This document shows, piece by piece, positions 3,388-29,883 of a DNA stretch of 64,000 nt. This DNA is from Clostridia bacterium (GTDB lineage: Bacteria > Bacillota > Clostridia > RGIG6154), in the NCBI GenBank assembly GCA_045589295.1, contig JAZNOU010000012.1, forward strand, positions 64,001 to 128,000. The letters run 5' to 3'. A program made the position numbers and the translations under genes. The notes below the pieces were generated by a model. It had not been told where the DNA came from. It did not search any database and was given only the letters and a program-made list of their open reading frames with translations. How positions within the stretch are numbered: the stretch's first letter is position 1; each line of letters begins with the position of its first letter.

Positions 3388-3397
3388 TTTGTTCTCC

Positions 3398-3757: not shown

Positions 3758-3808
3758 AATTTCTATTCCGTCCTTTCATAAAATAAAAGTGCATACGTAC
3801 TTGATATT

Positions 3809-3929: not shown

Positions 3930-3942
3930 GTCAGGAGAAAAT

Positions 3943-4384: not shown

Positions 4385-4394
4385 AGGAGTAAAA

Positions 4395-15147: not shown

Positions 15148-15162
15148 ATGAATAATGAAGGA

Positions 15163-15186
15163 GCAAACGCTTTGGCGTTTGCTTTT
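15163..15186. repeat. 24-bp direct repeat (hairpin), copy 1
   Basis: GCAAACGCTTTGGCGTTTGCTTTT identical to 15741-15764. Confidence 0.9.
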
Positions 15187-15400
15187 ATTTTATGGGGGTT
15201 GGGTTGTTGGTTATGCCTAAGATGTAGTCAGAAGATACGTTATAAAGTTTTGTTAGTTTGATTACCATTGAAACCGGAATTTCTCTCAAACCACGTTCAT
15301 ATCTTGCATACACTTGACGGTTACAGGTAAGGTACTCGGCTACCTGTTCTTGTGTTAAGTCGTTATCCATTCGTAAATCATACAAACGTTTAAAAAACAT
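15185..15400 (-). CDS. XRE-family HTH regulator
   Basis: MFFKRLYDLRMDNDLTQEQVAEYL...YARYERG...VSSDYILG; RBS GAGGTGG. Confidence 0.85.
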   Translation of the reverse strand: MFFKRLYDLRMDNDLTQEQVAEYLTCNRQVYARYERGLREIPVSMVIKLTKLYNVSSDYILGITNNPTPIK

Positions 15401-15491
15401 TAAAACCACCTCTTGACTTTAATGTTACCATATGGTATCATTTATGTTATTAATATGGTACCAAACGGCACCTTGGAGAAAGGATATAATT

Positions 15492-15722
15492 ATGAATATT
15501 AAAGTTGAATTATTAAAAGAGTGGGTGGCGGACCGAATTATAAACAATATGAATGATTTTGAAATTGACGCTAATGAAATTGCAGACAGCACTGCCATTA
15601 GGGCACTTTCGGAAATTCAGAAAATTTTGATAAGCGATGATTATGATGAAGAAATTGTGGAGCAGATTGTGTCGGTTTTTTCAAAATATCATTTGGATTT
15701 TGGTTCTTGTCACAATTATTAA
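15492..15722 (+). CDS. Small acidic hypothetical protein
   Basis: RBS GAAAGGA, ATG 15492; promoter TTGACT-17-TATCAT overlapped by palindrome TACCATATGGTA (15426-15437). Confidence 0.7.
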   Translation: MNIKVELLKEWVADRIINNMNDFEIDANEIADSTAIRALSEIQKILISDDYDEEIVEQIVSVFSKYHLDFGSCHNY

Positions 15723-15740
15723 AAGTTTTTATAATATGGT

Positions 15741-15764
15741 GCAAACGCTTTGGCGTTTGCTTTT
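15741..15764. repeat. 24-bp direct repeat (hairpin/terminator), copy 2
   Basis: Identical to 15163-15186, followed by a longer T run. Confidence 0.9.
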
Positions 15765-15816
15765 TTTTTCGCTTTGCGACAAGGTTTTACAAAATAAGTG
15801 CAGTCTACTTTGAAAC

Positions 15817-15852
15817 ATGTCCTTGAATGTCACATTATAGTAGTGGTATAAT
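15817..15852 (+). promoter_or_regulatory. Putative late promoter of the structural operon
   Basis: Direct repeat ATGTCC/ATGTCA with 10-bp period (15817, 15827), then extended -10 TGGTATAAT (15844-15852). Confidence 0.55.
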
Positions 15853-15877
15853 GCGCCCAGTCGAAAGGAGAGGCGAT

Positions 15878-16057
15878 ATGCAAAATAAAGTTTTGAATAA
15901 GACCGAGATACTTTTTAACTTAAGCTTAATTGCAAAAGATGACGCAGTTGCACCTAATTACAGAATAAAAGCTTTGGAGCTTTTGGGTAAGGCAAAGGGG
16001 ATTTTTGAGAGCGACGAAAAGGTTTTGGGTACTGTTAAGATAGTGGATGATATTTAA
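15878..16057 (+). CDS. Terminase small subunit, C-terminal part only (59 aa)
   Basis: RBS GAAAGGAG; RIKALELLGK...VKIVDDI, the typical TerS C-terminus; abuts terL. Confidence 0.75.
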   Translation: MQNKVLNKTEILFNLSLIAKDDAVAPNYRIKALELLGKAKGIFESDEKVLGTVKIVDDI

Positions 16058-17251
16058 GTGAATTTAAAAGATGCTGTAGCACCAAGCTTTTTTAGTGTTC
16101 ACGAAGCAATCAAAAAAGAAAAGTATACCCATTACTTTTTAAAAGGCGGAAGGGGTTCTGCCAAATCATCTTTTGTTTCTGTTGAAATTATTTTAGGTAT
16201 TATGAAAAACAAAAACGCTAATGCGGTGGTTTTAAGATGCGTTGCGTCTTCGCTCCGTGACAGCGTAATAGAACAGCTCAGCTGGGCGGCCGACCTGTTG
16301 GGCGTTTCGCATCTCTTTAAGACGACTTTTGCTCCTGCTGAAATGATTTTTTTACCGACGGGTCAGAAAATTATTTTCAAAGGGGCAGACGATGTTAAGA
16401 AAATCAAATCCACAAAGGTTAAAAACGGATACATAAGATATGTTTGGTTTGAAGAATGTGATGAATTTAAAAGCTACGACGATATTTTATCTGTTAACCA
16501 ATCTCTTTTACGAGGCGGTGAAAAGTTTGAAGTTTTTTACACTTTTAATCCGCCAAAAAATAAATCACATTGGATTAATTCGGTTAAGGGAAACAAAGAC
16601 ACGCTTTTTCATCACTCCACATACTTAAGCGTTCCATTTAAATGGCTTGGAAAACAGTTTTTTGAGGAAGCCGAAAGACTTAAAAATACTGATGAAGAAA
16701 GGTACCGGCATCAGTATTTAGGTGAATGTATTACTCCCAAGGAGCAGATTATTAAAAATTTTGAGGTTTTAGATGAATTACCTGAAACTGACATTAAGTT
16801 TTTAGGTCAGGATTTTGGGTTTAACCATGCAAATGCTATTTTGGAAGTGGGATTTACTGAAAACACTATTTACATTTACAAAGAGCATTATGTAAAGGGT
16901 ATGGACACTTCAGAGGTTATAAAAGATGCCGAAGGCATATTCAATAAAGACCTCATTATGTGGTGCGACAGTGCTGAGCCTGACAGGATTAAAATGTGGA
17001 AAAAGGCTGGATACAGAGCAGTACCTGTTTCAAAGGAGCGCGCATCTGTAAAAGCTCAGATTGATTTTCTTCTTTCCCATAAAATTGTTATTCATTCGTC
17101 CTGCGTTAACACTGTTAACGAAATAAACGGCTGGTGCTGGATGAAGGACAAGGCTACGGGTGAGTGCAGCGATGTGCCAAACCCAATAAATGACGATTTA
17201 ATGGCGGCGCTTCGCTACAGCATTGAATATTTAAGAAAGGCAGGATTTTGA
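16058..17251 (+). CDS. PBSX-family terminase large subunit
   Basis: KGGRGSAKS Walker A, WFEECDE Walker B, TFNPP, GQDFG, CDSAEP, DDLMAALRY. Confidence 0.92.
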   Translation: MNLKDAVAPSFFSVHEAIKKEKYTHYFLKGGRGSAKSSFVSVEIILGIMKNKNANAVVLRCVASSLRDSVIEQLSWAADLLGVSHLFKTTFAPAEMIFLPTGQKIIFKGADDVKKIKSTKVKNGYIRYVWFEECDEFKSYDDILSVNQSLLRGGEKFEVFYTFNPPKNKSHWINSVKGNKDTLFHHSTYLSVPFKWLGKQFFEEAERLKNTDEERYRHQYLGECITPKEQIIKNFEVLDELPETDIKFLGQDFGFNHANAILEVGFTENTIYIYKEHYVKGMDTSEVIKDAEGIFNKDLIMWCDSAEPDRIKMWKKAGYRAVPVSKERASVKAQIDFLLSHKIVIHSSCVNTVNEINGWCWMKDKATGECSDVPNPINDDLMAALRYSIEYLRKAGF

Positions 17252-17254
17252 TTT

Positions 17255-18532
17255 TTGAATATTTACTCAGTTTGCGATTATTTAGGCAAGAAGCTTGGAA
17301 TAAACATTCCTTGCGATTTTTATCAGAACGTAAAGCTCTGGCGTGACTGGTACAAGGGGTATTCAAAAGAGTTTCATCACTATACCGATTTTAACGGCAA
17401 AGAAACGGTGGAACTTGACAGGTACTCGCTTAAAATGGCAAAAAAAGTGTGCGAAGACTGGGCAAATCTGTTGTTTAACGAAAAGACTGTTGTTGCATCT
17501 GATAATGAAAAGGCGGACAAGCTTTTAAAAAGCATATTTTCTGCAAGCTCATTCCGCCAGGGAATGAACAATTTGGTTGAAAAGGCGTTTGCGCTTGGTA
17601 CAGGGGCGGCAGTTTTAAGGTTAAAGGGCAGTGAGATTTCGTTTGATTTCATAGGCGCAGAGTCAATTATTCCAATTTCGTACAAAGATGGCAATATTGA
17701 GGAAGTAGCCTTTGCAAGTGATTTTTATCATAGAGGCAAAAGGTACACTTACTTAGAGTGCCATTTAAAAGACAGTAACGGAAACTACGTTATTACAAAC
17801 GAGTATTTAGACGATTTGTTTGGTGTGGCTGAATTAGACACGGGGGTAATTAAAAGCTACAACACAAACTCTTGTATGCCGTGGTTCTCCATTATAAAGC
17901 CTAATATTGTAAACAATATTAACGATGTAACACCTCTCGGCATCTCGGTTTTTGCTAACGCGATTGACGTTTTAAAGGGACTTGACCTTGCGTATGACAA
18001 TCTTTGCACAGACTTTTTCTTAGGCGGGAAAATGATTATGATGAACGAAACGGTGATTGCAAAAGAAGAGGGCGGAAGAAGAATTCCTCCGCAGTTTTCA
18101 AGAAAGCGCCTTTTTATGTCAATGGGAGATTCTATTATTGACGGGAAAATGTATGAAGAATATAATCCTGCGCTCCGCGTTGACGAAAACACAAAGGGTA
18201 TTTTTACCCAGCTTTCGATTTTGGCCTCCATTTGCGGACTTGGTGAAAAGTTTTACTCTTTTTCAAACAATGAGGTTAAAACTGCAACTGAGGTTATGAG
18301 TGAAAACTCATCTCTTTTCAGATGTGTGAAAAAACACGAAATTATCATCGAAAATGCGCTTATTGCACTTGCAAAGGCGGTGCTTGATATTTTCAAAATT
18401 GATGCAAATGTTACAGTTATGTTTGATGACAGCATTATTGAAGACAAAAAGTCTGAAAGAGAGCAGGATTTTAAAGATGTAGAGGCAGGTCTTATGGAAA
18501 AGGAAAGTTACATCAGAAAGTATCACGCATAA
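17255..18532 (+). CDS. Phage portal protein (SPP1 gp6/A118-like)
   Basis: MAKKVCEDWANLLFNEK, PLGISVFANAID, KTATEVMSENS, FDDSIIED; follows terL. Confidence 0.88.
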   Translation: MNIYSVCDYLGKKLGINIPCDFYQNVKLWRDWYKGYSKEFHHYTDFNGKETVELDRYSLKMAKKVCEDWANLLFNEKTVVASDNEKADKLLKSIFSASSFRQGMNNLVEKAFALGTGAAVLRLKGSEISFDFIGAESIIPISYKDGNIEEVAFASDFYHRGKRYTYLECHLKDSNGNYVITNEYLDDLFGVAELDTGVIKSYNTNSCMPWFSIIKPNIVNNINDVTPLGISVFANAIDVLKGLDLAYDNLCTDFFLGGKMIMMNETVIAKEEGGRRIPPQFSRKRLFMSMGDSIIDGKMYEEYNPALRVDENTKGIFTQLSILASICGLGEKFYSFSNNEVKTATEVMSENSSLFRCVKKHEIIIENALIALAKAVLDIFKIDANVTVMFDDSIIEDKKSEREQDFKDVEAGLMEKESYIRKYHA

Positions 18533-18541
18533 GGAGAAAAA

Positions 18542-18970
18542 ATGGATTTTTTAAAAGAATTTTTAAGTGCTGAGCTTTTTGACTCTGTTAAAAAAGAGCT
18601 TGAGGGCAAAAATGTTAGCCTTATTAACAATTTCAGCGGTGAATATGCTCTAAAAAGCGAGCTTGAAGAACAAAGCAATAAAAAAATCAACGAAATTATG
18701 TTTGAAAATGCGCTCTCTAGCGCGCTTGAAAAAAGTGGAGTTAAAAGCGTTAAAGCGCTCAAAGGGTTTTTAGAGCCTGAAAAAATGAGTTTTGAAGACG
18801 GAGTTTTAAAGGGCTTTAATGAACAGATTACAAAAATAAAAAAAGAAAACGGATTTTTATTTAACGATTTTGGTATAACAGGGCATTCTCACAAAAGCGG
18901 GATGACTGATTTTAACTCAATGAGTGATGATGAATATTACCAGAGCGTTTTAAGAAAGGATGAATTTTAA
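18542..18970 (+). CDS. Phage scaffolding protein (GP20-like)
   Basis: ALEKSGVKSVKALKGFL...GFNEQITKIKKENGFLF; sits between portal and capsid. Confidence 0.75.
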   Translation: MDFLKEFLSAELFDSVKKELEGKNVSLINNFSGEYALKSELEEQSNKKINEIMFENALSSALEKSGVKSVKALKGFLEPEKMSFEDGVLKGFNEQITKIKKENGFLFNDFGITGHSHKSGMTDFNSMSDDEYYQSVLRKDEF

Positions 18971-18972
18971 TT

Positions 18973-20082
18973 ATGGCAAATCAGCTTATTACTATTAAAG
19001 AAATTGCAAGGGCGGCTCTTCCGAGACTTATTGAAAATCTCGCGTTCCCGAACCTTGTTCACAAAGATTTTTCTAACGAGTTTGTTTCAGGTAAAGGTGA
19101 CAGAATTCAGGTAAGAAAGCCTGTTGTGTTATCTGCAGAAGAATTTGATGAAGCAAAAGGCACTTCTGTGCAGGATATTAACGAATCTTCTGTTGAAGTG
19201 GCACTCGACAAGCTTGCAACAGTTGATACAGAATTTTCTGCAATTGCTGCGGCAACTTCTATTGACGATATCAACAGAATTTTCATTGAGCCTGCGGCTG
19301 CGGCTCTTGCACAGAAAATCAACTCTGATGGTTTAGAACTTTATAAAGATATTCCTTATATTACAGGTGAAGCAGGCAAAACTCCGTCTTCCCTGGAAGA
19401 CATTGCGGCTGTAAGAAAGGCTTTAAATGACAAAAATGTTCCGATTACTCCGAGAGTTGCGGTATGGGACACTGAAGCAGACACCAAGTTTACAACTGTT
19501 GACGCTATTGTTCACGCTGACAAGTCAGGCAGAGTAAAAGCACTTCGCGATGGTTCAATCGGTAAGATTTTCGGACTTGAAAACTATATGTCTCAGGCCG
19601 TTAAAAAGCACAAGAGTGAATTGTCAGGCACTGCCCTTAAGATAAATGGTGCGACAGAAGAGGGGGCTACGACACTTTCTGTTACAGGAACAACTCTTAC
19701 AGGCAAGTTTGTAAAAGGCGACGTGCTTAAAATTGACGGCAAAACTTACACAGTTACTAAAGATTCAGATGAAGCGGCAAACAACACAATCGCTGAAGTT
19801 TGTGTTTACCCTGCTCTTGGCGCAGTGAAAGACAAAACAGAAATTACGTTAGTTGGAGACCACACAGCAAATCTTGCGTTTAATCCTATGGCGTTTGCTT
19901 TTGTAACACGTCCGCTTTCTGCTCCGTCAGGCGTTGAAAGCTATGTTACAAGCTACAACGGCATTACACTTCGTGTTGTTAAGGGATACGATATGAAGCA
20001 CAAAAAGGAAATGCTTTCTATGGACGTGCTTTACGGCTACAAAACTATGTATCCTGAGCTTGCAACAAGAGTTTTGGGCTAA
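18973..20082 (+). CDS. Major capsid protein (P22 coat-protein family)
   Basis: MANQLIT, GDRIQVRKP, GKIFGLENYMSQ, NLAFNPMAFAFVTRPL, SMDVLYGYK. Confidence 0.88.
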   Translation: MANQLITIKEIARAALPRLIENLAFPNLVHKDFSNEFVSGKGDRIQVRKPVVLSAEEFDEAKGTSVQDINESSVEVALDKLATVDTEFSAIAAATSIDDINRIFIEPAAAALAQKINSDGLELYKDIPYITGEAGKTPSSLEDIAAVRKALNDKNVPITPRVAVWDTEADTKFTTVDAIVHADKSGRVKALRDGSIGKIFGLENYMSQAVKKHKSELSGTALKINGATEEGATTLSVTGTTLTGKFVKGDVLKIDGKTYTVTKDSDEAANNTIAEVCVYPALGAVKDKTEITLVGDHTANLAFNPMAFAFVTRPLSAPSGVESYVTSYNGITLRVVKGYDMKHKKEMLSMDVLYGYKTMYPELATRVLG

Positions 20083-20103
20083 TCCTTTAAAGGAGGAGCT
20101 TGT

Positions 20104-20436
20104 ATGGATAAAGTAGGATTTGATTATTATCAGAACGTCTTTTTAGGCAGTGAGATTACTTCCAAAAAGGTGTTTGAAAAATTAGAGCGCTACGCACTTT
20201 CGTACGTTGATAAAATCACTTTCGGCAGAATTACTTATATGACCGAAAGCATTAAATGTGCGGTTTGCAGTGTGTGTGAGGCGCTTTTTAAAAGTAGTGA
20301 GCGAAGCGGCATTAAACACGAGGTAAATGACGGATATTCTGTGACTTATACCGATAAGGCAGAAAGCGAATTTTCTGATATTTATATGGCGGCGGCTGTG
20401 TTTTTGCCCGCGGAACTTCTTTACAAAGGTATTTAG
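20104..20436 (+). CDS. Head-tail connector/adaptor
   Basis: VDKITFGRI, KCAVCSVCE, NDGYSVTY, LLYKGI; follows capsid. Confidence 0.7.
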   Translation: MDKVGFDYYQNVFLGSEITSKKVFEKLERYALSYVDKITFGRITYMTESIKCAVCSVCEALFKSSERSGIKHEVNDGYSVTYTDKAESEFSDIYMAAAVFLPAELLYKGI

Positions 20437-20492
20437 CGGAAGGGGGCAATCCCTTTCATGCACAGATTATGAGTAAGGGGTGGATTTTTTAA

Positions 20493-20795
20493 ATGATATG
20501 CTGCGATAAATGTATTACGGTGTTTTCGTTTAACGGGAGGGCGTATGACAGTTTTGTTTTTGATGGTGTGAGTATTTTTGGTTCTGACGGGATTAAAGAA
20601 AATAATTCGGGGTTTGAAGAAAACAACAGCTTTAAAATAAGAATCCCGACAACTCAAAAGATTAGTGTTGCACCAGGTGACAGGGTTGTTTTCGGCATAA
20701 AAGATGCTTTTGATGCAGAAAATGCTTACACCGTTATGAGTGTTAAAGACAACACCAGGGGTGTAAATAAGCACTTTTTAATTGAAATTAAATAA
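20493..20795 (+). CDS. Head closure / neck protein
   Basis: GDRVVFG, TVMSVKDNTRG...H; gene order. Confidence 0.6.
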   Translation: MICCDKCITVFSFNGRAYDSFVFDGVSIFGSDGIKENNSGFEENNSFKIRIPTTQKISVAPGDRVVFGIKDAFDAENAYTVMSVKDNTRGVNKHFLIEIK

Positions 20796-20880
20796 TTTTT
20801 TGTGGGTTGGAGTATCGAAAAGGCAAGTTGTGTTTTAAGGTGGGAGAAAACACAGAATTTAAAAAGAAAGAGGGATTGAT

Positions 20881-21270
20881 TTGATAGATAAAATTCAGGA
20901 ATTTTTGCTCGGTTTCGGGCATTTCAATATAGATTATTTATCGGGAAAGATTAACGGAATGAGTGTGTATCAGGATAATTTTAATCCCGTCAAAAAGCCG
21001 TATTCCGGCGGCGGCGGACTTTACAGGTATTCCTTTTTTGTTGAAATCACAAGCCCTTATGCTGCCGATTTAAATGCAGGCAACCATATGGTGGTTGACG
21101 AGCTTATTGATTTCATAGAAAGAAAAAATTTAAAAAGGCAGCTTCCTGAACTTAAACAGGGGTTAAAGGCGCAGTCTATAAAGGTAATACAAAATTTCGG
21201 GCGTGTGAATACTGCAGTAAACAAGGCAAATTTCAGGCTAAAGCTTGAACTTTTGTACACAAAGGGGTGA
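20881..21270 (+). CDS. Tail terminator / neck (minor capsid-type) protein
   Basis: FNIDYL, DFIERKNLKRQLPEL, LKLELLY; gene order. Confidence 0.6.
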   Translation: MIDKIQEFLLGFGHFNIDYLSGKINGMSVYQDNFNPVKKPYSGGGGLYRYSFFVEITSPYAADLNAGNHMVVDELIDFIERKNLKRQLPELKQGLKAQSIKVIQNFGRVNTAVNKANFRLKLELLYTKG

Positions 21271-21770
21271 TATCTTTGGATTTAATTATGCTATCTGAAA
21301 ATCTAGCGGCATTTATGGAAATTGATGGTAAGTTTTATAAAATGCAAGGTTTTTCAAAGCTGGATATTCTTTCTGTGCCTGAGGTTTATGCAAGAAAATA
21401 CATAAACAACGACTTTAAAAGTGTAACAGTTACTGGCGGTGACACAAAAATTTCATACGCTTTTGACAGAATGAAAAATTTTAAGGTTCATGACGTTTTA
21501 TCACGTATTGCAGACCTTAATTTGAGCGGTGACGAGGCGACAGTAAAAATTGTTTTGGTCGATTTTGACAATGAACAAGACGGAAAGTTTTATGCTATTA
21601 AGCAAAGCTTTGCAGTTGTGTGCAAAGATGTTCGGCCTGAGGATGGTTTTTTAGATTATTTTGGTATGTTTATTTCTTCGGGTAAGGCATCAGAGGGGGC
21701 TGTTACCTCCTGTGATGGTTTTGAAACTGCTGATTTTACAGAGAAAAGGAGGGGAATATTATGCGATTGA
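21267..21770 (+). CDS. Major tail (tube) protein-like
   Basis: LAAFMEI..FYKMQGFS, YARKYIN, ISYAFD; gene order; start uncertain (ATG 21288 possible). Confidence 0.6.
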   Translation: MISLDLIMLSENLAAFMEIDGKFYKMQGFSKLDILSVPEVYARKYINNDFKSVTVTGGDTKISYAFDRMKNFKVHDVLSRIADLNLSGDEATVKIVLVDFDNEQDGKFYAIKQSFAVVCKDVRPEDGFLDYFGMFISSGKASEGAVTSCDGFETADFTEKRRGILCD

Positions 21771-22600
21771 TTTTTGAAAGCGACGGCAAAAAACTTGAAA
21801 TGGGTGACGATTGCGACGCCTCTGTTATTGAAATCTCGGGGCTTGGTACGCCTGAAAGGCAATACAACACCAAAAGGTATGTAAATATTCCAGGACAGGT
21901 TACTGTTTCTTCGCACGTGCTTGCAAGAAATATTGTAATTAAGGGTGATATATGTTTAAACGGAGGGTTGCCGACAGAAAAATATCACACTTTTTTCTGT
22001 CAAAGCGGAATGCTTACCATAACAGGAAAAGATAAAAAGAACATTAATTACAATCCTGTTTCTTTTAAGACGGGCAATAGAAATGGCGAGTTTGTTTCTT
22101 TTGAGCTTAAATTAGTTTGCGATTTTCCTTACTTTTCTGACGGCAATGACATTCCGTATGAGATATACAAAAGATTAGATATGGTAACAGGTAAGTTTAG
22201 TTTACCTAAAGTTTTTACCAAAAGAGTTACTGAGGTGGATATCTACAATTCGGGACAGGCAGACTCTGAACCTGTTATAACCATTGGATGTACAAATCAG
22301 GGTATTTACTCAGGCGGCATTGTGATTTACAATGCGCTTACAAAAAAAGAACTTAAGCTGGATACCAATCTTTCTTTAGGTGAAACGATTACAATTGATA
22401 TAAAAAACAGAAAAATCTCGAGTAATAAGAGAGCAAACTGCTACGGAATTTTAAATGAGAATTGTGTTTTGTCTGATTTTGTGATTGCAAGGGGAATAAA
22501 TCATATTTTACTTACAAACTTAAACGACGGAGAAACAGTTACAGCATCAATTTTGTTTAATAATTTATATGCGGAGGCGGAGATTGTTGAAAGAAATTAA
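21761..22600 (+). CDS. Distal tail (Dit/Sipho_tail) protein
   Basis: ISGLG, PG, RNIVIKG, CDFPYF, IYNSGQ..SEPVITI, GETITID, GINHI. Confidence 0.75.
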   Translation: MRLIFESDGKKLEMGDDCDASVIEISGLGTPERQYNTKRYVNIPGQVTVSSHVLARNIVIKGDICLNGGLPTEKYHTFFCQSGMLTITGKDKKNINYNPVSFKTGNRNGEFVSFELKLVCDFPYFSDGNDIPYEIYKRLDMVTGKFSLPKVFTKRVTEVDIYNSGQADSEPVITIGCTNQGIYSGGIVIYNALTKKELKLDTNLSLGETITIDIKNRKISSNKRANCYGILNENCVLSDFVIARGINHILLTNLNDGETVTASILFNNLYAEAEIVERN

Positions 22601-23726
22601 AATTTATGATTTTGACTTTAACCTGATTGCTTCCGAGTTTAAGTGCGTTTCATTTAAGTGGGATGTAAGATTTAATTCAATTGGCGGCTTCGAGGGGGTA
22701 TTTACCCTTGATTCTGACATTTATTCTACGTGTGCAAACAAGGATTTTTTGGTTTGCGTTCAAGGCGAAAATCAGGGAATTGTAACCTCTGTGAGAATTG
22801 AAAACGACCAGATTATAATTAGCGGGAAGTCTTTAAACTTTTTGCTTGAAAAAAGGGTTTGTCTACCTTTTTCAACTAAAGATAGCGGTATTTTAAAATC
22901 TGCTCCCGAGCTTGTGTGCGAGTTGGTTTTAAAGTATTGCGGTGATTTTATGGAGGTTTTAAGTGCACCACAAGGATACGATAAATCGCATTTTACCAGG
23001 ATTGAAGCAAAGCCTCTTTGCGAGATTGTAACAGATTTGCTAAGCGGTGTTAATCTTGGACATTTTGTTAAGTTTGACATAAAAAACAAAAAGTGGATAT
23101 TTGGCATAATAGAGCCTGAAGTAAAAAACATTGTGCTTTCAGAACCTGACAAAACCCTTTCTGATTGCGATTATGTAAGATATTTGTCAGACTATGCTGC
23201 GTCAGGCGTTTATCAGCAAAAAGTATATTATCAGGGCTTGTGGAATGCTGAGACAAACACTCCTTTTTTGTGGGACAATGAAAAACCCAATTTTGCAAAA
23301 GCTTACAAGGTGGAAGAGGCCGGTCAGATGTTTGGCATAAGTTTTGACAAGGGTGATTACATTATTTGCAAGGATGAAAGCGGTAAGTGGCAAAAAAGTG
23401 CAGATTGCTTACCTTTTTGGTACAAGGTTACACCTAAAAACGCAAATGGAGCTAAACTTTGGGAGTGCGCTTTATCCTGCGATGATATTTCAGAGGCTTA
23501 CGAATTGACACTTTTAAGAGAAATAAGCGAAAATGTGGTAGCACTTACCGAGGGTGAGGTTAAAAACGAGTTTAAAGTGGGCGATATAATAAAAATTCAG
23601 CTTGGCAGAGGCGATGCTCTAAAGGTTTTTACAAAGCAGGTTAAAAGAATGGTGCATCACAGCGACGCTGAGGAAAGTTTTGTAAGACCTACATTCTATA
23701 AGTTAAAGGAGAGGGAAGATGAGTAA
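22569..23726 (+). CDS. Siphovirus baseplate hub (Gp37/Tal-like) protein
   Basis: IKIYDFDFNLI, RFNSIGGFE, ISGKSL..LLEKR, FKVGDII; follows Dit; true start may be TTG near 22587. Confidence 0.65.
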   Translation: MRRRRLLKEIKIYDFDFNLIASEFKCVSFKWDVRFNSIGGFEGVFTLDSDIYSTCANKDFLVCVQGENQGIVTSVRIENDQIIISGKSLNFLLEKRVCLPFSTKDSGILKSAPELVCELVLKYCGDFMEVLSAPQGYDKSHFTRIEAKPLCEIVTDLLSGVNLGHFVKFDIKNKKWIFGIIEPEVKNIVLSEPDKTLSDCDYVRYLSDYAASGVYQQKVYYQGLWNAETNTPFLWDNEKPNFAKAYKVEEAGQMFGISFDKGDYIICKDESGKWQKSADCLPFWYKVTPKNANGAKLWECALSCDDISEAYELTLLREISENVVALTEGEVKNEFKVGDIIKIQLGRGDALKVFTKQVKRMVHHSDAEESFVRPTFYKLKEREDE

Positions 23727-24573
23727 TTATAAATATACTTTTTTTGATAATCAGACGGTTGGCGTTGACCATTTGAACGAAATTACAAAGAGGCTTGTGT
23801 CAGGGGGGATTTCTGCAGTTTACAGCGGAGTAGATTTTAATGTTGCAGACATTAATGATAACAATAAGGCGATTTTAACAGGCGGTGTTGTACCTGGAAA
23901 TGATTTGAATTTAAAGGTAACGGCGGTAGGAAGCGGAAAGTACCTTATAAATCAGGGACTTTGCTTTTTTAACAACGGCACTACTATGGAGATTTTATCG
24001 GGCGGAGAAGAAATTGTTGTACCGCAAGGGGTAACAAGCTACATTTATTTGGTGTCCGACAGCAATAAAATGGCGTGTTATGTCGAAGTTTTGCAAAGTG
24101 AAAAGCAGACGGGTGAATTTATTCTTCTGGCTGTTATAAATGTTGACGGGACAGTTGTCGATAAACGCACCTATGCGAAAGGTAAAGTTCCCGGGTTTTA
24201 TGCGTCTTCCGAGAGCATGCAGGTAAATATTACCCAAAAATATGAGGGAGAAAAAAATATAGAAATTTCGGTTGGTATGGGCAATTTTAAGCATCTTTGT
24301 ATCAGGGCAGAGTCAGGCGCTTTTCATAATGGTTCTGGGTATAACATTAATTACGGGGGACTTTTTTATTGTGATTTTGAAAACTCAGTTGCGGTAAATC
24401 CTTCTATGTGTTCCGTGCTTGCAGGCGATAGTTATATTTATTATGACAGAAACATTGGCTCCTGCCGTCTTGGGTCTAATATTAGATTGGAAAACGGAAA
24501 GCTCATTATACCTGTGATAGAGGGTAATGTAAATAAGGGGTATGAAGTACGGTTTTCATATCATTTATGGTAA
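23719..24573 (+). CDS. Baseplate / minor tail protein
   Basis: YTFFDN, G.CFFNNG, ILLAVI...VDKRTY; gene order. Confidence 0.6.
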   Translation: MSNYKYTFFDNQTVGVDHLNEITKRLVSGGISAVYSGVDFNVADINDNNKAILTGGVVPGNDLNLKVTAVGSGKYLINQGLCFFNNGTTMEILSGGEEIVVPQGVTSYIYLVSDSNKMACYVEVLQSEKQTGEFILLAVINVDGTVVDKRTYAKGKVPGFYASSESMQVNITQKYEGEKNIEISVGMGNFKHLCIRAESGAFHNGSGYNINYGGLFYCDFENSVAVNPSMCSVLAGDSYIYYDRNIGSCRLGSNIRLENGKLIIPVIEGNVNKGYEVRFSYHLW

Positions 24574-24585
24574 GGAGGAGTTTAG

Positions 24586-27411
24586 ATGAAGAGAAAAATT
24601 ATTCCAAAACAAAAATATACAACCTATGCTTCGTTTCCGCTTGTGTCTGGCGACGTAAGGGCATACGAGATAGAGCTTGATTTAGGTGAAAATGTTTCGG
24701 GGGCGGAGTTTAAGGTAGTTGCAATCCGCGCTGACGGCAAGGCTATTGAGGATTTGGGAACAGTTGAAAACGGAATCGCAAGATATACTTTATCAAACAG
24801 TATGTACGCCGTACAGGGTGAGCTTACTGTAAGATTGCAGATACTTCATAATTCAAGTGTTTTAACTGATAGGGAAATTATTTTTGAGGTTAAAAAAGGT
24901 GCGACTGATACTACAGCGGCACAAACTGTTATGCCTCTTAACGACAGTGTGATTTTAAGAGTTTCTGCATTTGAAGATAAGCTTTTAAGCAAGGTTGACA
25001 AACAAGCGGGCATGGGACTTTCGACAAATGATTTTTCGGACCAGTACAAGCAAAAACTTGATAACTTAGATGAAACTATGGGAGCAGAAATAGAGCAAAT
25101 ATCAGAAACGATTGATAATTTGTCAGATAGTTTTGATGAACACACAAAAGACAAAGCAAACCCCCACAATGTTACGGCGCAGCAGGTTGGTGCATATTCA
25201 AAATCTGAAACAGATAACAAGCTTTATAAAAAAGCGGATAAATCAGATATTTCTAATATATACTCATATCAAGGCTCAGTTGATACTTTTGAGGATATTG
25301 AGTGTATCAGCATAACGCTTGTCCCCAATGGCGAGCCTACTTGCAAAGGACAAGTATGCGGGTCGTTTAATGAAGATGATGGGTGTGTGACTATCGATGA
25401 GATAGCAGAAGAAGATTTTGATACAATTATTATTCCAATAAAAGAGGTAACGCTTAAAAAGGGGTATTATGCTATATCAAGCGAGCTGAGAGATGGTATG
25501 TATAAGTCAGGAATTGCAATTGATATTTACCAAATGGATGAATTTAATGTGCAGGAAGGATATGTTTTCAAAGTCGAAAATGACACGGTTATAAATCTGG
25601 CTCATATATTCAGACATAGTGATTCACTATTTGGTGGTTGCACAGGAGATGTTGTATGCACACTTACCAAAATGCCAAATATACTTGTAGATGAATCCAG
25701 CTATAACGAACAATATGGAACTTGTGAAGCGTATGGCATTTCTCCGTCAAACGGCTCAGTATACAACGTCTTAGACACGGGTATAAACTATGCTTGGAAT
25801 GGTACTGAATGGGACGCTTTAGGCGGTGAGCATAAGGATTTAGAGGCTAGAGAAGAAATTAAAAAACTGTCTGATAGTTTGGACTGTATTGATATTAGTG
25901 ATAATAACATTTCGTTTAACAGAGATAAAAACACAGTCGGCATAATAAAAGAGATTGGTAGTTTCACCTGTACTGCGATTGATGAAAGTACAAACAAATA
26001 CACCTTTGATGTTGCTGACACGTCAGTTTTTGTTTCATACACCGAGTACAAGGTTACGGTAGATGATACTGACTATCTTATAAGGTCAACAACAATAAAC
26101 GAAGATAACGTTGTGTTTGAAGCGGTTGATGATGCAGTTCCTTTTGAGGTTGGAAATACATACAACATAAGATTTGAGACAAAAAATGCAACCTCTTTTG
26201 GTGTGGATAATACAGTTTTGGCAAATGAGGGCTTTGCAACAGGTATGGCTAATTTCATTGATGAAACTGGCGACCAAGGTGTTGCTCACGGATACGGCAA
26301 TAAGCTCTCAGGAAAGGCACATTTTGTTGCAGGTTCATCAAATGATGTTTCAGAAGGCAGTACTGATACAATATTTGGCAGTAACAACATTGTCAAAGGC
26401 AGTAACAAACTTGTTGCAGGTCTAAACCTGCTTGCGGAATTAACTGCTTCGGGAAGTGCTGTATTAGGAAAATACAACATTGATGTAAAAGATGCTTTGC
26501 TTATAGTTGGTATCGGATATGATAAAAACCACAGACAAAATGCTTTGGTTATGGACAAAAACGGCAATATTGTAGCTTATGGTACTCTTACTGTGGATAA
26601 TAATGTAAGTATTAACGGAGAGCTAAATGTTTGCAATAAAGCTGTTATGTCTAAGGGGTTAGAGGTTAACGGTGAAACTACGATTGATGGCAGTACAAAT
26701 ATTAAAGGAGCAATGGCATATAAAGAGTCTGAGGTTGTGAACCTAGAAATGTTATCCAAACATACAGGTATCGATATTGGCAGAAAAGGTGCAGGTTATA
26801 TGTCTGTCGTGTTTAATCACGACGGTAATGAAGGAAGCGGGTATGCTTCGTTTACTGCAGGCACAAGTAACAAAACAACTGCAGGACAGGCAGCAACCTT
26901 TGGGCACGCAAATGAAAATAGCGGTTTTTCTGCTTTTACTGCAGGCTCGGGCAATATAACTACAAAAGACCAAGGTGCTACGTTTGGCTATTCAAATGAA
27001 AATCACGGATGGGCTTCTTTCATAGCCGGTGCTTTTAACAAAATAAAAGGAGCTTTTAACGCCTGTATTGCTTTAGGTAGGGATATATTAATAAATGCAG
27101 ATAACGCTATTGGTATTGGAAGAGGACTTAATGTTGATAAGGCTAACCAAGTAGTTGTTGGTGCATATAACAAGTCTGATAATGAATCTGTGTTTATAGC
27201 AGGCTGTGGTACGGATGATAAAAACCGCAAGAACGCAATAACTGTAAGAGAATCTGACGGACGTACCAAAATCCATAATGGGCTTGATGTAGAAGGTTTA
27301 ATAAACGGTGTGGATTTACAAGAACTTAAAACGCAAATGGGTGACATTAACACTGCACTTGAAGCCATTATCGAAATTGACAATAAACTGATTGGCGGTG
27401 ATGGTGAATGA
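24586..27411 (+). CDS. Tail fibre / receptor-binding protein (BppU-like N-terminus, YadA-head-like repeats)
   Basis: KVDKQAGMGLSTNDF, NPHNVTAQQVG, NYAWNGTEWDALGG, 14-aa periodic AxG.SN repeats, G.G.D..RKNA neck motifs. Confidence 0.75.
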   Translation: MKRKIIPKQKYTTYASFPLVSGDVRAYEIELDLGENVSGAEFKVVAIRADGKAIEDLGTVENGIARYTLSNSMYAVQGELTVRLQILHNSSVLTDREIIFEVKKGATDTTAAQTVMPLNDSVILRVSAFEDKLLSKVDKQAGMGLSTNDFSDQYKQKLDNLDETMGAEIEQISETIDNLSDSFDEHTKDKANPHNVTAQQVGAYSKSETDNKLYKKADKSDISNIYSYQGSVDTFEDIECISITLVPNGEPTCKGQVCGSFNEDDGCVTIDEIAEEDFDTIIIPIKEVTLKKGYYAISSELRDGMYKSGIAIDIYQMDEFNVQEGYVFKVENDTVINLAHIFRHSDSLFGGCTGDVVCTLTKMPNILVDESSYNEQYGTCEAYGISPSNGSVYNVLDTGINYAWNGTEWDALGGEHKDLEAREEIKKLSDSLDCIDISDNNISFNRDKNTVGIIKEIGSFTCTAIDESTNKYTFDVADTSVFVSYTEYKVTVDDTDYLIRSTTINEDNVVFEAVDDAVPFEVGNTYNIRFETKNATSFGVDNTVLANEGFATGMANFIDETGDQGVAHGYGNKLSGKAHFVAGSSNDVSEGSTDTIFGSNNIVKGSNKLVAGLNLLAELTASGSAVLGKYNIDVKDALLIVGIGYDKNHRQNALVMDKNGNIVAYGTLTVDNNVSINGELNVCNKAVMSKGLEVNGETTIDGSTNIKGAMAYKESEVVNLEMLSKHTGIDIGRKGAGYMSVVFNHDGNEGSGYASFTAGTSNKTTAGQAATFGHANENSGFSAFTAGSGNITTKDQGATFGYSNENHGWASFIAGAFNKIKGAFNACIALGRDILINADNAIGIGRGLNVDKANQVVVGAYNKSDNESVFIAGCGTDDKNRKNAITVRESDGRTKIHNGLDVEGLINGVDLQELKTQMGDINTALEAIIEIDNKLIGGDGE

Positions 27412-28571
27412 GTAACAGTATAGAGCAAAACCTTGTGACTATTGCTGAAAACCGACAAAAGATTTATGATGCAGGGAGAAATGCCGTTATAAACGAACTG
27501 AAGGAACTGCAAAAAGGCACTGCAAATGGTGAAGTTGTTGCCATTTCTGATATATCACCTATCCCACATAATATTGATGTTAAAGTATCAAGCAAAAATA
27601 TAGTTAATGCTGATGTTTTATGTGGCAAACAATTTACTAAAAATGATGATGGAAGTTATACCTTTACTATGGGTAGTGGCGGTAATAGATTTACTGCAAT
27701 GGCTAATATATTTATTCCAAAAGGCTCAAAAGTTGTGTTTTCTATAACTGGTTTTGAGAGTGATAATATTGCTTTGGTTGGTATTCAAACACTTTATGCT
27801 AATGGCACTTATTTAAGTAGTTATGATGTAAAGCCTGGATATTTATCAAACAAAGCAATTAAAACAGAAGATGATATAGTAGGCTTGCGCTTATATCTTA
27901 ATCAAGGCACTGCTGAAGGAGCAACAGTAAAACTAACTGGTATTCAATTGGAATATGGCACAGTAGCAACCGCTTATACACCTTATGTAGATGTAAGCAC
28001 AGTTAAGTTAGATGCTCTTGGGAAAAATCTGTGGGATGCAGACTTAAATAAAATAGCACCAGTGCAATATACATCTGCGACAAGCGGTGGAATGGCAAAA
28101 AGAAATGGTTGGGAAATGGAATTGGTTGCAGGTGTTACATACACAGTAAAAGCAACACCAAAAGAAAGCAGTTTTACAGAAAGTTATTTGTACGGATGTG
28201 TAACTGATAAGGATGATAAAGTTAAAAAGACTACACCTTTAGTAGCAAATCAACAGTTACAAACTCACACATTTACAGCAGAAGATGGTTGGAAATTAAA
28301 GCTGTATGACGGGATTGCGCAAAACGGACTTACAGATACTAAGACAATGGTGTCAAAATTTAATATTCAGCTTGAAATCGGTGAAAAAGCAACACCTTAT
28401 GAACCACATATCCAGCCTGTAACATATATACCGAATGCAGACGGAGCTATAGAGGGGGTAAAGAGTGTTTGCCCTAATATGACTCTTTTAACTAATACTG
28501 AAGGAGTAATGATTGAGTGCAACTATAAGAAAGACATAAACCCGATTTTTGATAAATATGTGAGAGATTAG
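27408..28571 (+). CDS. Phage accessory tail protein with two repeated beta-sandwich modules
   Basis: Two copies of (S/G)KN...IQLExGxxATxYxP. Confidence 0.6.
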   Translation: MSNSIEQNLVTIAENRQKIYDAGRNAVINELKELQKGTANGEVVAISDISPIPHNIDVKVSSKNIVNADVLCGKQFTKNDDGSYTFTMGSGGNRFTAMANIFIPKGSKVVFSITGFESDNIALVGIQTLYANGTYLSSYDVKPGYLSNKAIKTEDDIVGLRLYLNQGTAEGATVKLTGIQLEYGTVATAYTPYVDVSTVKLDALGKNLWDADLNKIAPVQYTSATSGGMAKRNGWEMELVAGVTYTVKATPKESSFTESYLYGCVTDKDDKVKKTTPLVANQQLQTHTFTAEDGWKLKLYDGIAQNGLTDTKTMVSKFNIQLEIGEKATPYEPHIQPVTYIPNADGAIEGVKSVCPNMTLLTNTEGVMIECNYKKDINPIFDKYVRD

Positions 28572-28581
28572 GAGTGATTTT

Positions 28582-29283
28582 ATGAGAATCTGTGTAGATG
28601 CAGGGCATAATTATGATGGGTTTGACACAGGAGCAATTGGCAACGGCTTAAAAGAACAGAATGTTACATTTGAAATTGCAGACAAACTTAAAACCCTTTT
28701 AACCAAAGAAGGTATCGGCGTTACAATGACAAGAGCAAAACTTACTGACAATGTTGGGGTTAATGCAAAAGACAGCATAAATCAAAGGGTGAGAATTGCC
28801 AATACTACAAGATGCGACTATTTTATATCAATTCACTGTAATTCAAGCACAAACAAAGGTGCAAACGGAACCGAAACGCTTATCTACGGGTTTGGTGGAC
28901 AAGCTGAGAGAATAGCAAAAGCGGTAAATGCGAGTATTGTATCAGAGTTAGGTACTTATGACAGAGGTGTTAAAGTAAGAACTGATTTGGGCGTTTTAAG
29001 GGATACTTCAATGCCTGCAATTTTGGTTGAAACGGCTTTTATTTCAAATGAGAAAGATGCTAAACTTTTAAAAGAAAAAACAGATGATTTTGCACAAGCA
29101 ATTTTTGAGGGGATTTTAGAGCATTTGGACAAGAAAGAAGAAGTTGATATCATTGAAAGACTTTCAGAAATTATTGAAATTAATGATAAAACAACTGCAA
29201 AGGCTCAGCTTTTGAAAGAAAAAGAAAAAAATTCAAGTCTGTATTGGATTTTATACAAAATTGCAAACAAGGAGGGGACATAA
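28582..29283 (+). CDS. N-acetylmuramoyl-L-alanine amidase (Amidase_3) endolysin
   Basis: DAGHN, GLKE, ISIHCNS, PAILVETAFISN. Confidence 0.92.
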   Translation: MRICVDAGHNYDGFDTGAIGNGLKEQNVTFEIADKLKTLLTKEGIGVTMTRAKLTDNVGVNAKDSINQRVRIANTTRCDYFISIHCNSSTNKGANGTETLIYGFGGQAERIAKAVNASIVSELGTYDRGVKVRTDLGVLRDTSMPAILVETAFISNEKDAKLLKEKTDDFAQAIFEGILEHLDKKEEVDIIERLSEIIEINDKTTAKAQLLKEKEKNSSLYWILYKIANKEGT

Positions 29284-29483
29284 TGGATGTTGGTCAGATT
29301 ACTGATATGATAATGAATCAGGGGATATGGTGTGCACTTTTCTGCTATCTTTTTTATAGCGTGCGAAAAGAATCAAAAGATGACAAAGCACAGCTTATGG
29401 AACTTTTAAGTCTGCAGAGCGAAAAGCTTTCGGAGATAACCGCGGCACTTGAAAATCTTTCTAATAAAATAAAATCAAATTAA
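29283..29483 (+). CDS. BhlA/UviB-like holin
   Basis: 66 aa, QGIWCALFCYLFYSVRKE single TM then coiled tail; RBS GGAGGG. Confidence 0.75.
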   Translation: MDVGQITDMIMNQGIWCALFCYLFYSVRKESKDDKAQLMELLSLQSEKLSEITAALENLSNKIKSN

Positions 29484-29536: not shown

Positions 29537-29619
29537 AACCTTTTGCTATGGTTCGGGAATCTCCGACCCGAATCGTTGTGAAATGGCGATTTTATATTAT
29601 TTTTTGGAGGTATTTCAAA
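29537..29619 (+). promoter_or_regulatory. rpsO (S15) autoregulatory leader
   Basis: Structured 5'UTR (GGTTCGGG...CCGACCCGAATC) between promoter and rpsO RBS. Confidence 0.55.
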
Positions 29620-29883
29620 ATGGAAAAAGAAGTAAAACAGCAGATTATCGCGGATAACAAAATCCACGACACAGACACAGGTTCACCTGAAGTTCAGATT
29701 GCAATTTTAACAAACAGAATCAATCACTTAAACGAACACCTTAAAGTGAACAAAAAAGACTTCCACTCAAGAAGAGGTCTTTTGAAAATGGTAGGTAAAA
29801 GAAGAGGTCTTCTCTTATACTTGCAGAAAAAGGACATCGAAAGATACAGAGCTATCATTGCTAAGCTCGGTCTTAGAAAGTAG
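29620..29883 (+). CDS. rpsO: 30S ribosomal protein S15
   Basis: [35 protein letters not shown]. Confidence 0.98.

Follow-up and report, generated by a model that had tools for sequence, protein, structure and literature searches.

A phage-derived head, tail and lysis operon as the probable core of a multi-locus, gene transfer agent-like element in uncultured gut Clostridia

The window analyzed here is a stretch of 64,000 nucleotides (positions 64,001–128,000 of contig C12, G000:C12:64001-128000) from the genome of a Clostridia bacterium (1.54 Mb, 97% complete, 22 contigs). At positions 15878–29483, it contains an operon of 16 closely packed phage head, neck, tail and lysis genes, all on the forward strand and located between holA and rpsO. 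The genes were assigned by Pfam and PHROG scans, which bore out the preliminary description of the locus as a one-strand operon of this composition. That description had also reported no integrase, replication gene or att repeat. In agreement with this, the family scans gave no match to integrase or replication families in the cluster or its flanks, the repeat search found no direct repeat bracketing the cluster, and no tRNA gene was found. The GC content of the operon (0.35–0.43) is similar to that of its surroundings. The cluster is thus a structural phage cluster in a chromosome without replication or integration functions, as is characteristic of gene transfer agents (GTAs), and the comparative evidence presented below suggests that it is probably the core operon of a host-kept, phage-derived, GTA-like (viriform) particle system that is vertically inherited and controlled in trans.

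The tail set of the operon, which consists of a tube protein, Dit and a Sipho_Gp37-type hub, is siphovirus-like. No sheath family was matched in the operon scans, and the contractile tail of PBSX-like bacteriocins therefore has no counterpart here. Two of the initial gene calls were confirmed by profile comparisons: a profile of 13 tube sequences matched PDB entry 11ok with an E-value of 1e-15, and a profile of 12 orthologues of the small terminase subunit, TerS, matched the TerS of SF6 (3zqp, 164 aa) with an E-value of 2e-11. The start of terS was placed at the ATG at position 15878, the one preceded by an AGGAG Shine-Dalgarno sequence, which yields a protein of 59 aa. The 12 orthologues align at a mean column identity of 64%, and their profile matched only residues 83–104 and 122–159 of the SF6 protein, while the window protein aligns to residues 112–168 of the 175-aa TerS of a phage-like relative. 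The N-terminal part is absent in all 12 orthologues, so that only the C-terminal third of a phage TerS is present. In SF6-type terminases, it is the N-terminal part that binds DNA. Judged from these alignments, TerS is a predicted C-terminal remnant without the DNA-binding domain, and its dN/dS ratio of 0.06–0.16 indicates that this remnant is under purifying selection.

The distribution of the cluster was analyzed in the host family, which constitutes the whole order and is represented by 18 species in six genera (g1 to g6, with the window genome in g1). The capsid gene was identified as a single copy in 14 of the 18 species and five of the six genera, with 87–92% identity to the window protein within the same genus and 71–78% identity in the four other genera. 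None of the four g3 species (completeness 96, 82, 80 and 72%) gave a match, and TerL was likewise not found there. The gene order from terS to the gene for the 284-aa protein is identical in every locus that is sufficiently long. In a tree of pnp and htpG with midpoint rooting, the five bearing genera form a clade (100/100) beside g3, and one gain or one loss therefore explains the distribution.

In a tree of TerL, portal and capsid, each genus formed a clade of its own (100/97 to 100/100), and the branching inside g1 and g4 was that of the host tree. The p-distances of host and cluster correlated with r = 0.81 over 89 non-independent pairs. Thus, the comparison of terminase and capsid with the species tree, which the preliminary description had proposed, showed agreement for the genera and for the topology within g1 and g4, but a different order between the genera. 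Approximate dN/dS ratios were calculated by the Nei-Gojobori method for three species pairs in g1 and one in g5. They amounted to 0.04–0.15 for most head and neck genes (0.28–0.32 for DUF6751) and 0.12–0.32 for the tail genes, as compared to 0.05–0.09 for the host genes holA, htpG and pnp. The g1 orthologues showed no stop codons. The retained genes are thus intact, as had been noted from the window, with ratios of 0.04–0.32 that are not near the value of 1. Based on the presence in 14 of 18 species, the trees within genera and the dN/dS ratios, the pattern is that of vertical inheritance under purifying selection, as in GTAs.

The chromosomal address of the cluster is fixed within a genus. 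In g1, holA is located to the left in the window genome and in G002, while on the right side the holin gene directly precedes rpsO in the window genome, and the amidase and holin genes of G001 and G002 are followed by two genes for an ABC exporter (604 and 595 aa; 3.8 kb) and then by rpsO. Both g5 species have the cluster between HisRS and a KDPG aldolase-pfkB-MntP array. In g4, it is situated between genes for proteins of 167 and 661 aa and holin-upp in the three species with both flanks, and only the left flank is visible in G017. The proposed holA-cluster-rpsO synteny is therefore a genus-level address only.

The promoter of the operon carries a direct-repeat motif, TGTCCTTGAATGTCA, over its -35 box and is also listed in a scan for consensus promoters. 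In each of 12 loci, which come from five genera, terS is preceded by the sequence TGTC(C/A)TTGAATGTCA or a close variant, that is, a TGTCNT direct repeat that overlaps the -35 box and has the -10 box 18–19 nt beyond it. The exact 15-mer with a -10 box occurs in three copies in the 1.54-Mb genome, one of them ahead of terS and the other two outside the window (C12:45718-45732 and C12:2798-2812). When up to two mismatches were allowed, three extra sites were found in the genome as compared to seven for the reversed control, which corresponds to background. Across the family, the motif gave 24 matches in 9 of the 18 genomes, with none for the reversed control and none in g3; a variant of the motif in g4 gave six matches and none for its control. 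The first gene 3' of the motif was terS for 10 of the 24 matches, barnase/barstar or barstar alone for six, fibre genes in g5 and g6 for three, cassettes of Amidase_2+SLH and holin in g5 for two, and genes resembling Lin1244_N replication organisers in G008 for the remaining three.

The loci that share the motif are dispersed. In the window genome, the two motif-driven toxin modules described below are located on the same contig at distances of 34 and 77 kb. One extra site in g4 is located ahead of a BspA-LRR fibre gene and a gene resembling that of the 387-aa protein. Fibre genes (g4, g5 and g6) and lysis genes (g5) have their own motif-driven loci in the sister genera, and the window fibre shares 34–38% identity in its N-terminus with the fibres encoded at these separate loci. 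The motif-driven endolysin of g5 (L105, L112) is an Amidase_2 domain joined to an S-layer-homology (SLH) domain, which suggests a lysin tailored to the SLH-anchoring cell wall of the host itself. In G008 (L100, L119 and L121), the motif precedes three genes with Lin1244_N and Phg_2220_C domains, two of which are identical and face outwards, one at either end of a 17.5-kb contig. G008 may harbour a replicating relative that relies on the same activator.

A candidate for this activator is encoded at positions 3184–4805 of the window, 11 kb upstream of terS, in a four-gene switch consisting of an ImmA-like peptidase, an Xre-type repressor, a Cys-rich putative zinc protein and a DUF1492/LtrB-like protein of 136 aa. 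The peptidase is presumed to be the anti-repressor protease of the switch, and the TTTGAATTAAATTCAA palindromes next to its strong promoter are presumed to be the operators of the Xre protein. The nearest structures to the 136-aa protein in the Atlas were phage clusters annotated as DUF1492/Sigma70_r4 (TM 0.83–0.92), while the Pfam hidden Markov models gave it no match (E 0.01). The switch, which in g1 is located between murT and hydF, is conserved as a unit in 12 other genomes that represent all five cluster-bearing genera. The repressor is 82–88% identical within the genus and 38–50% identical in other genera. The activator was detected in 13 of the 18 genomes; the four g3 genomes gave no match to it and are also without the motif. 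In G008, at least the Cys-rich protein of the switch was found, and partial matches to its C-terminal half, within longer open reading frames (ORFs), were obtained in two of the four g3 genomes.

In the available part of the study by Quiles-Puchalt et al. (2013, PMC3753634), late activators of the DUF1492/LtrB family are described as small, repressor-controlled proteins that bind repeats upstream of terS, and such an activator alone suffices to turn on the whole packaging-and-lysis operon. The system in the window resembles these Ltr systems as described there in having a DUF1492/sigma-region-4-like protein of about 130 aa under presumed repressor control, direct repeats upstream of terS and one putative activator for the whole morphogenesis and lysis operon. 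It differs in that the activator gene is not immediately upstream of terS but 11 kb away, and in that the presumed regulon comprises three separate loci in the window genome and as many as five in the relatives. Control in trans by the 3184–4805 switch, as the preliminary description had suggested, fits these data through its co-occurrence with the cluster and the analogy to the LtrB family. The combination of an HTH_3 repressor, its Peptidase_M78 partner and the DUF1492-like activator also corresponds to the PBSX-type pairing of an Xre repressor with a sigma-like positive factor.

The tail genes revealed a difference between the window genus and its sister genera. In g2, g4, g5 and g6, two extra genes are located between the tube gene and the Dit gene. 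The first encodes a Phage_Gp15 chaperone (E 2.9e-39) and the second a helical protein of 380 aa, which comes closest to tape measures among the Atlas structures (TM 0.43; this serves only as a lead). All four g1 species are without both genes, and their tube gene overlaps the start of Dit. Searches with the proteins of the sister genera as queries found neither gene anywhere in the window genome. The chaperone is the stronger negative of the two, because tape-measure sequences diverge fast and Gp15 is better conserved. Thus, the earlier observation that a tape-measure gene is lacking was confirmed for the cluster and, with the sister-genus queries, for the genome, but the lack is peculiar to g1 and the sister genera keep one.

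Following the loss of the tape measure and the chaperone, faster evolution is seen in the tube protein alone. Within g1, the tube proteins are 41–54% identical, as compared to 69–90% in the genera that keep the tape measure, at a similar capsid identity of 84–95%, and their dN/dS ratio is 0.26–0.32, as compared to 0.06 in g5. The four g1 tube proteins end in a common C-terminal extension (…KRRGILCD) over the start of Dit (21740–21770 in the window), which may be the scar of the deletion; the tube proteins of the genera that keep the chaperone and the tape measure do not have it. Since all genes have remained intact at a divergence with saturated synonymous sites, selection still appears to maintain the tape-measure-free form in g1. 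A tail assembled from these genes would probably be very short or irregular, as no tape measure is encoded.

Each of the two other motif sites in the window genome heads a two-gene toxin/immunity module, and the two modules are paralogous. The first gene encodes a protein of 176 aa, of which residues 68–175 form a complete barnase domain (E 3e-31; Pfam Ribonuclease 2.9e-10), and the second gene, directly downstream, encodes a barstar (5e-16). Residues 19–57 of the toxin match positions 69–111 of 112 in Phage_Mu_F with an E-value of 8.6e-4 and 20.5 bits, below the cut-off of 29.6, and the C-terminal end of this family was matched in four of five barnase-fusion homologues (best E 1.3e-6). The statement that there is no SPP1 gp7-type gene therefore holds for the cluster, but not for the contig, where a putative MuF (gp7-like) remnant is fused to barnase. 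In the module at 2.8 kb of the contig, the toxin gene is split by a frameshift. The gene located between portal and scaffold in the phage relatives was considered as the source of the MuF part and rejected, as it is without the PxHxxCxC motif and gave no BLAST match to the barnase fusion.

The toxin was identified in 6 of the 18 genomes (all four from g1, one from g5 and one from g6) and was not found in any of the six g2 and g4 genomes, all of which bear the cluster. In G001 and G003, only a stub of the toxin remains beside an intact barstar gene; G007 has a motif-driven, barstar-like ORF alone; and in G008 the MuF-barnase/barstar pair is located within the main operon, between amidase and holin. 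With the N-terminal 90 aa as the query, no MuF remnant joined to another toxin domain was found in g2 and g4. As far as the available part of Jamet et al. (2017, PMC5576092) describes MuF polymorphic toxins, the modules share with them a putative MuF-type N-terminus, a C-terminal toxin domain with its cognate immunity gene downstream and an association with a siphovirus head module. They differ in that only about 40 of the last MuF positions are present, that the gene is not beside the portal gene in the head module of a temperate phage but at separate loci with a copy of the late promoter or in the lysis cassette, and that the carrier would be a non-replicating, domesticated element. The word "barnase" does not occur in the main text of that paper.

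Two further observations were made at these modules. A perfect 14-bp palindrome, AAATAACGTTATTT, is located between the -10 box and the start codon of the g1 toxin/immunity modules and of the barstar-like ORF in G007 (L109, L102, L108, L114, L120), and is missing from the terS leader; a role as a second operator or as an RNA element is conceivable. In addition, the region 3' of the intact module (G000:C12:36000-47000, L087) contains small genes on the same strand, including those for paralogous proteins of 133 and 126 aa, followed by a serine recombinase (Resolvase 5.2e-26, L087 4616-5203). This run may be the remnant of another mobile element.

Table 1. Features of the window and of neighbouring loci, with the evidence for each assignment (E-values for family matches)
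Feature	Position	Strand	Evidence and remarks
terS remnant (59 aa)	15878–16057	+	Weak PHROG match, 0.009; profile match to SF6 TerS
TerL	16058–17251	+	Terminase_3 1.6e-40; Terminase_3C 9.2e-13; dN/dS 0.10–0.13
Portal	17255–18532	+	phrog_533 1.3e-91; SPP1_portal 3e-14
Scaffold	18542–18970	+	Phage_scaffold 5.2e-16
Major capsid protein, P22-coat type	18973–20082	+	P22_CoatProtein 5.7e-46; phrog_283 1.2e-81
Head-tail adaptor (neck)	20104–20436	+	phrog_541 1.2e-16
DUF6751 (neck)	20493–20795	+	DUF6751 3.3e-9
Tail completion (neck)	20881–21270	+	phrog_3266 1.7e-12
Tail tube protein (167 aa)	21267–21770	+	Profile match to PDB 11ok
Distal tail protein Dit	21761–22600	+	phrog_33 1.1e-11
Tail hub, Sipho_Gp37 type	22569–23726	+	Sipho_Gp37 4.2e-14
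Baseplate-region protein (284 aa)	23719–24573	+	No Pfam or PHROG family match; orthologues after the hub in all genera
Fibre (941 aa)	24586–27411	+	Tail-fibre PHROGs (fibre and 387-aa partner: 2.8e-8 and 5.1e-5)
Fibre partner (387 aa)	27408–28571	+	No Pfam family; presumed receptor-binding module with the fibre
Amidase_3 endolysin	28582–29283	+	Amidase_3 2.5e-47
BhlA-type holin	29244–29483	+	Holin_BhlA 6.5e-7
Operon promoter	15818–15853	+	TGTCCTTGAATGTCA over -35 box TTGAAT, 18-nt spacer, TG-extended TATAAT
ImmA/IrrE-like metallopeptidase (67 aa)	3184–3387	-	HEMAH motif; Peptidase_M78 1.3e-6, 28.7 bits (cut-off 22)
Xre/cI-type repressor (119 aa)	3398–3757	-	HTH_3 2.8e-15; PHROG transcriptional regulator/repressor families
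Switch promoter and two copies of a 16-bp palindrome	3869–3930	+	TTGACA-17-TATAAT; TTTGAATTAAATTCAA; read from the sequence
Cys-rich protein (95 aa)	4097–4384	+	First long gene of the rightward operon; no Pfam family; weak PHROG matches; 43–90% identity
DUF1492/LtrB-like late activator (136 aa)	4395–4805	+	phrog_36 9.6e-9; followed by a terminator
holA	14137–15117		Left flank
rpsO	29548–29883		Right flank, followed by pnp
Polymorphic insertion cassette (576 bp)	15160–15769		Between holA terminator and operon promoter; outside the conserved element
Xre-type HTH gene in cassette	15185–15409	-	HTH_3 1.6e-12
Acidic ORF in cassette (76 aa)	15492–15722	+	No Pfam family
ABC-exporter genes of G001	L165 1529–5130		Counterpart in G002, L164; absent there in the window genome

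The operon does not adjoin holA directly, since a cassette with a gene for an Xre-type helix-turn-helix (HTH) protein and a 76-aa ORF (15185–15722) intervenes before the promoter. The cassette is flanked by a 32-nt hairpin in direct repeat (15160–15191 and 15738–15769, repeat family D2), contains palindromic TACCATATGGTA-like sites between its two genes, and both genes have paralogues elsewhere in the genome. It is absent in G002, and the contigs from two of four runs skip from 15186 to 15763. The Xre gene at 15185–15409 is thus not part of the particle system.

The contigs from these four runs, which come from four studies, hold the cluster, and some of them bridge the holA and rpsO sides. 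Segments of the fibre module are replaced between the natural strains represented by these contigs, and the 284-aa protein has its C-terminal part replaced in the contig from one run. Where the contigs of X3 and X5 leave parts of the fibre region uncovered, this was not counted as absence. Segment replacement of this kind would be expected from a functional receptor-binding module under diversifying pressure, although it does not prove one.

The search for relatives outside the order gave no complete, close phage relative among GenBank phages, IMG/VR and other GTDB contigs, so that the complete phage with the same genes, from which a recent deletion could have produced the cluster, was looked for and no close one was found. 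The closest capsid among GenBank phages is 27–40% identical. Contigs from IMG/VR and other GTDB genomes encode capsids with 56–68% identity, but with a TerL of only 39% and a portal of 36–37% identity; the best portal in IMG/VR is 44% identical. These phage-like relatives have a minor-capsid gene of 367–645 aa between portal and scaffold, which the element lacks in each of the five genera. A locus in G034 (L176, family f18), with 59–60% identity for TerL and 55% for the portal, encodes the full-length TerS of 175 aa, a minor capsid protein and a tape measure of 1544 aa, and looks like a real phage module.

With a portal profile, 43 genomes out of the 399 scored in the class gave matches at E ≤1e-30. 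Among these, compact clusters with the genes from portal to tube, Gp15, a short tape measure, Dit and hub were found in the three families f36 (L182), f37 (L179, L187) and f62 (L185), in each case directly between genes with homologues elsewhere in the window genome. The tape-measure gene encodes about 225 aa in f37, 354 aa in f62 and 391 aa in f36, as compared to 1544 aa in G034. The f37 and f62 clusters end in amidase and holin, and that of f36 ends at the partner protein of the hub. The f37 cluster starts at the portal with no terminase gene beside it; its portal is a single-copy gene in 12 of 25 species and five of eight genera, with identities graded by genus, and in the f37 genome G198 a homologue of the MuF-barnase gene is located right after the amidase gene. 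Compact clusters in three further families suggest that GTA-like elements of this type may be common.

Taken together, a multi-locus GTA-like element is our best reading of these data, and the GTA interpretation of the preliminary description is supported as far as sequence comparison reaches, as none of the comparative checks refuted it. In such an element, a signal would activate the ImmA-like protease, which would lead to the removal of the Xre repressor. The promoter at 3869–3897 would then express the Cys-rich protein and the DUF1492/LtrB-type activator, and the latter would act on TGTCCTTGAATGTCA at the -35 position of three promoters, those of the 16-gene operon (15818–29483) and of the two barnase/barstar modules. 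Portal, scaffold and capsid would build heads, which TerL and the 59-aa TerS would fill with DNA, presumably with no sequence preference, for which the missing DNA-binding domain in all 12 TerS orthologues is indirect evidence. The neck, tube, Dit, hub, 284-aa and fibre proteins would provide an adsorption device of the siphovirus type, tape-measure-free in g1. Holin and amidase would lyse the producer cell, and the particles may then bind to related cells via the fast-varying fibre. Gene content, conservation, selection, the promoter regulon and the joint occurrence of switch and cluster are observed in the sequences, whereas we infer particle production, random packaging, delivery and the signal itself.

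Several points weigh against this reading. The element is known from genes alone, and its hosts are represented only by metagenome-assembled genomes (MAGs). The capsids that are 56–68% identical occur in unrelated phage-like contigs, and capsid identity alone therefore says little. The address of the cluster differs between genera, and a distance of 40 kb separates holA from pnp in G007. In approximately unbiased (AU) tests, the cluster data reject the host split g2+g5+g6 (p-AU 0.0004), while the two-gene host data do not reject the g1+g5 split of the cluster (p-AU 0.124); as both splits were named after inspecting the trees, neither incongruence nor strict co-divergence between the genera is demonstrated. 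The dN/dS ratios are rough, because dS is saturated (0.6–3.6), although their direction is clear. The link between activator and motif is one of co-occurrence and family analogy only, and the motif is not exclusive to particle genes, since it precedes the Lin1244_N genes in G008. The RcGTA of Alphaproteobacteria is controlled by host regulators of the CtrA/GafA type, whereas the regulator here is a retained phage switch (Xre/ImmA/LtrB). Finally, the tape measure and its chaperone are required for tail assembly and DNA passage in siphoviruses, and their absence makes easy delivery of DNA doubtful in the window genus.

This last point also bears on a different purpose of the particle. In the case of PBSX, the benefit is antagonism and not gene transfer. 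Likewise, the particles encoded here could adsorb via the fibre and harm non-kin, possibly with the MuF-remnant-barnase protein loaded into the capsid, in which case carriers of barstar would survive. A killer or toxin-delivery role of this kind is possible, although we assign it a low probability. Consistent with it, the modules have the exact promoter of the operon and combine a full barnase domain with an immunity gene and, in four of five homologues, the Phage_Mu_F end; the toxin pair is within the main operon of G008, and the homologue in G198 directly follows the amidase. The barstar genes that persist beside toxin stubs in G001 and G003, or alone as in G007, the swapping of fibre segments between natural strains and the doubtful DNA delivery in g1 point in the same direction, and SPP1 gp7 (MuF) binds the portal, with one to two copies in each capsid, according to the available part of PMC5576092. 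Against this, the toxin was identified in no more than 6 of 18 genomes, and not in any of the six cluster-bearing genomes of g2 and g4, only about 40 MuF residues remain and the copy in the window genome scores below the Pfam cut-off. Moreover, the packaging genes are among the most constrained, a constraint that a killer particle would not require, although PBSX packages DNA too.

The two functions could also be combined in kin-discriminating delivery, which we put forward tentatively and consider doubtful as a whole. Barnase on a MuF remnant of about 65 residues would be loaded at the portal and ejected, kin with barstar would survive and may recombine the delivered DNA, whereas non-kin would be killed, and g1 would have a short-tailed form of the particle. 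Such elements would have undergone domestication in four or more gut Clostridia families, with tape measures reduced from 1544 aa to about 225–390 aa and finally to none.

The single domestication implied by a vertically inherited GTA-like element may be contrasted with the independent integration, in each genus, of related temperate phages or mobile elements that were each reduced to the same remnant. The different locus in each genus, the between-genus order that departs from the host tree, with a host split rejected by the cluster data, and the existence of phage-like relatives such as that in G034 and of compact clusters with the same architecture in other families would all be expected from such a history. 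We nevertheless consider it improbable, as the five genera share the TerS remnant, the loss of the minor capsid gene that phage-like relatives have between portal and scaffold, the short tape measure, the promoter motif and the unlinked four-gene switch, the cluster is single-copy per genome, the bearing genera are one host clade and the host data are compatible with the cluster topology. A decaying prophage remnant without present function is very improbable: the missing integrase, replication and tape-measure genes, the accelerated tube protein of g1 and the frameshift in one of the two barnase genes of the window genome could be taken as decay, but 16 genes are intact despite saturated synonymous sites, with dN/dS ratios of 0.04–0.32, and the cluster is present in 14 species with a conserved promoter and trans-acting switch.

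A GTA-like element thus remains the preferred reading, and it may be compared with other domesticated phages. PBSX of Bacillus subtilis has a contractile tail and is controlled by an Xre-type repressor and a sigma-like positive factor. The present element is similar to PBSX in being a host-kept, phage-like chromosomal cluster in a Gram-positive host with a repressor and a sigma-like factor, and PBSX also packages host DNA and has a possible killing role; it differs in having no sheath gene, about half the size, a regulator 11 kb away and dispersed accessory loci. With the RcGTA-type elements of Alphaproteobacteria, to which a sequence relationship is not expected, it shares a phage-derived head-tail cluster, vertical inheritance and purifying selection, a TerS predicted to lack DNA-binding specificity, dispersed accessory genes and regulators, and a predicted release by lysis. 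The P22-coat-type capsid, the lack of a tape measure in g1 and the toxin/immunity pair in the regulon set it apart from RcGTA. The available part of PMC12946183 refers to PBSX as a GTA-like element that acts as a tailocin and states, citing Sherlock et al. (2019), that the TerS of RcGTA is without DNA-binding specificity.

A literature search for published elements of this type in Clostridia yielded only FpGTA, from Faecalibacterium prausnitzii, and transductomics papers. In the available part of its description (Borodovich et al. 2026, PMC12946183), FpGTA has two operons and a TerS without the DNA-binding domain, and its particles are tail-less, about 40 nm in size and contain 8.4–8.9 kb of host DNA. 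FpGTA thus shows that particles of the GTA type are produced by gut Clostridia from compact operons of this sort. Both elements are found in gut Clostridia and are nearly ubiquitous within their host clade, and both combine a compact operon of a TerS without DNA-binding domain, TerL, portal, scaffold and capsid with the absence of genes for replication and integration. Fibre and lysis genes at separate loci in g4, g5 and g6 recall operon II of FpGTA, and a short or absent tail is plausible in g1. In contrast, the element described here has a siphovirus-type tube, Dit and hub, whereas FpGTA is described as related to short-tailed phages, and the fibre and lysis genes of the window genome are situated inside the main operon. 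The available part of the FpGTA description contains no promoter regulon, LtrB-type switch or co-regulated barnase. The comparison was made to that description, in which particles and packaged DNA are experimental, whereas the present element is known from its genes.

To our knowledge, GTA-like elements were thought to be nearly confined to Alphaproteobacteria before the report on FpGTA in 2026. Based on its gene content and distribution, the element would represent a new lineage of the FpGTA kind, independent and order-wide in uncultured gut Clostridia, to which it would add siphovirus tail parts, a promoter regulon, an LtrB-type switch acting in trans, a co-regulated barnase/barstar pair and, in g1, a tape-measure-free tail. 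Its parts list can be read from the sequence, with a truncated TerS, a 15-bp promoter signature that locates the dispersed loci and an Xre/ImmA/LtrB switch, and a search for this motif together with a TerS without DNA-binding domain provides a practical route to such elements in MAGs. Two of the features, the co-regulated barnase/barstar and the siphovirus-type tail that appears to be selected without a tape measure, are unusual for a GTA and bear on the purpose of the particle.

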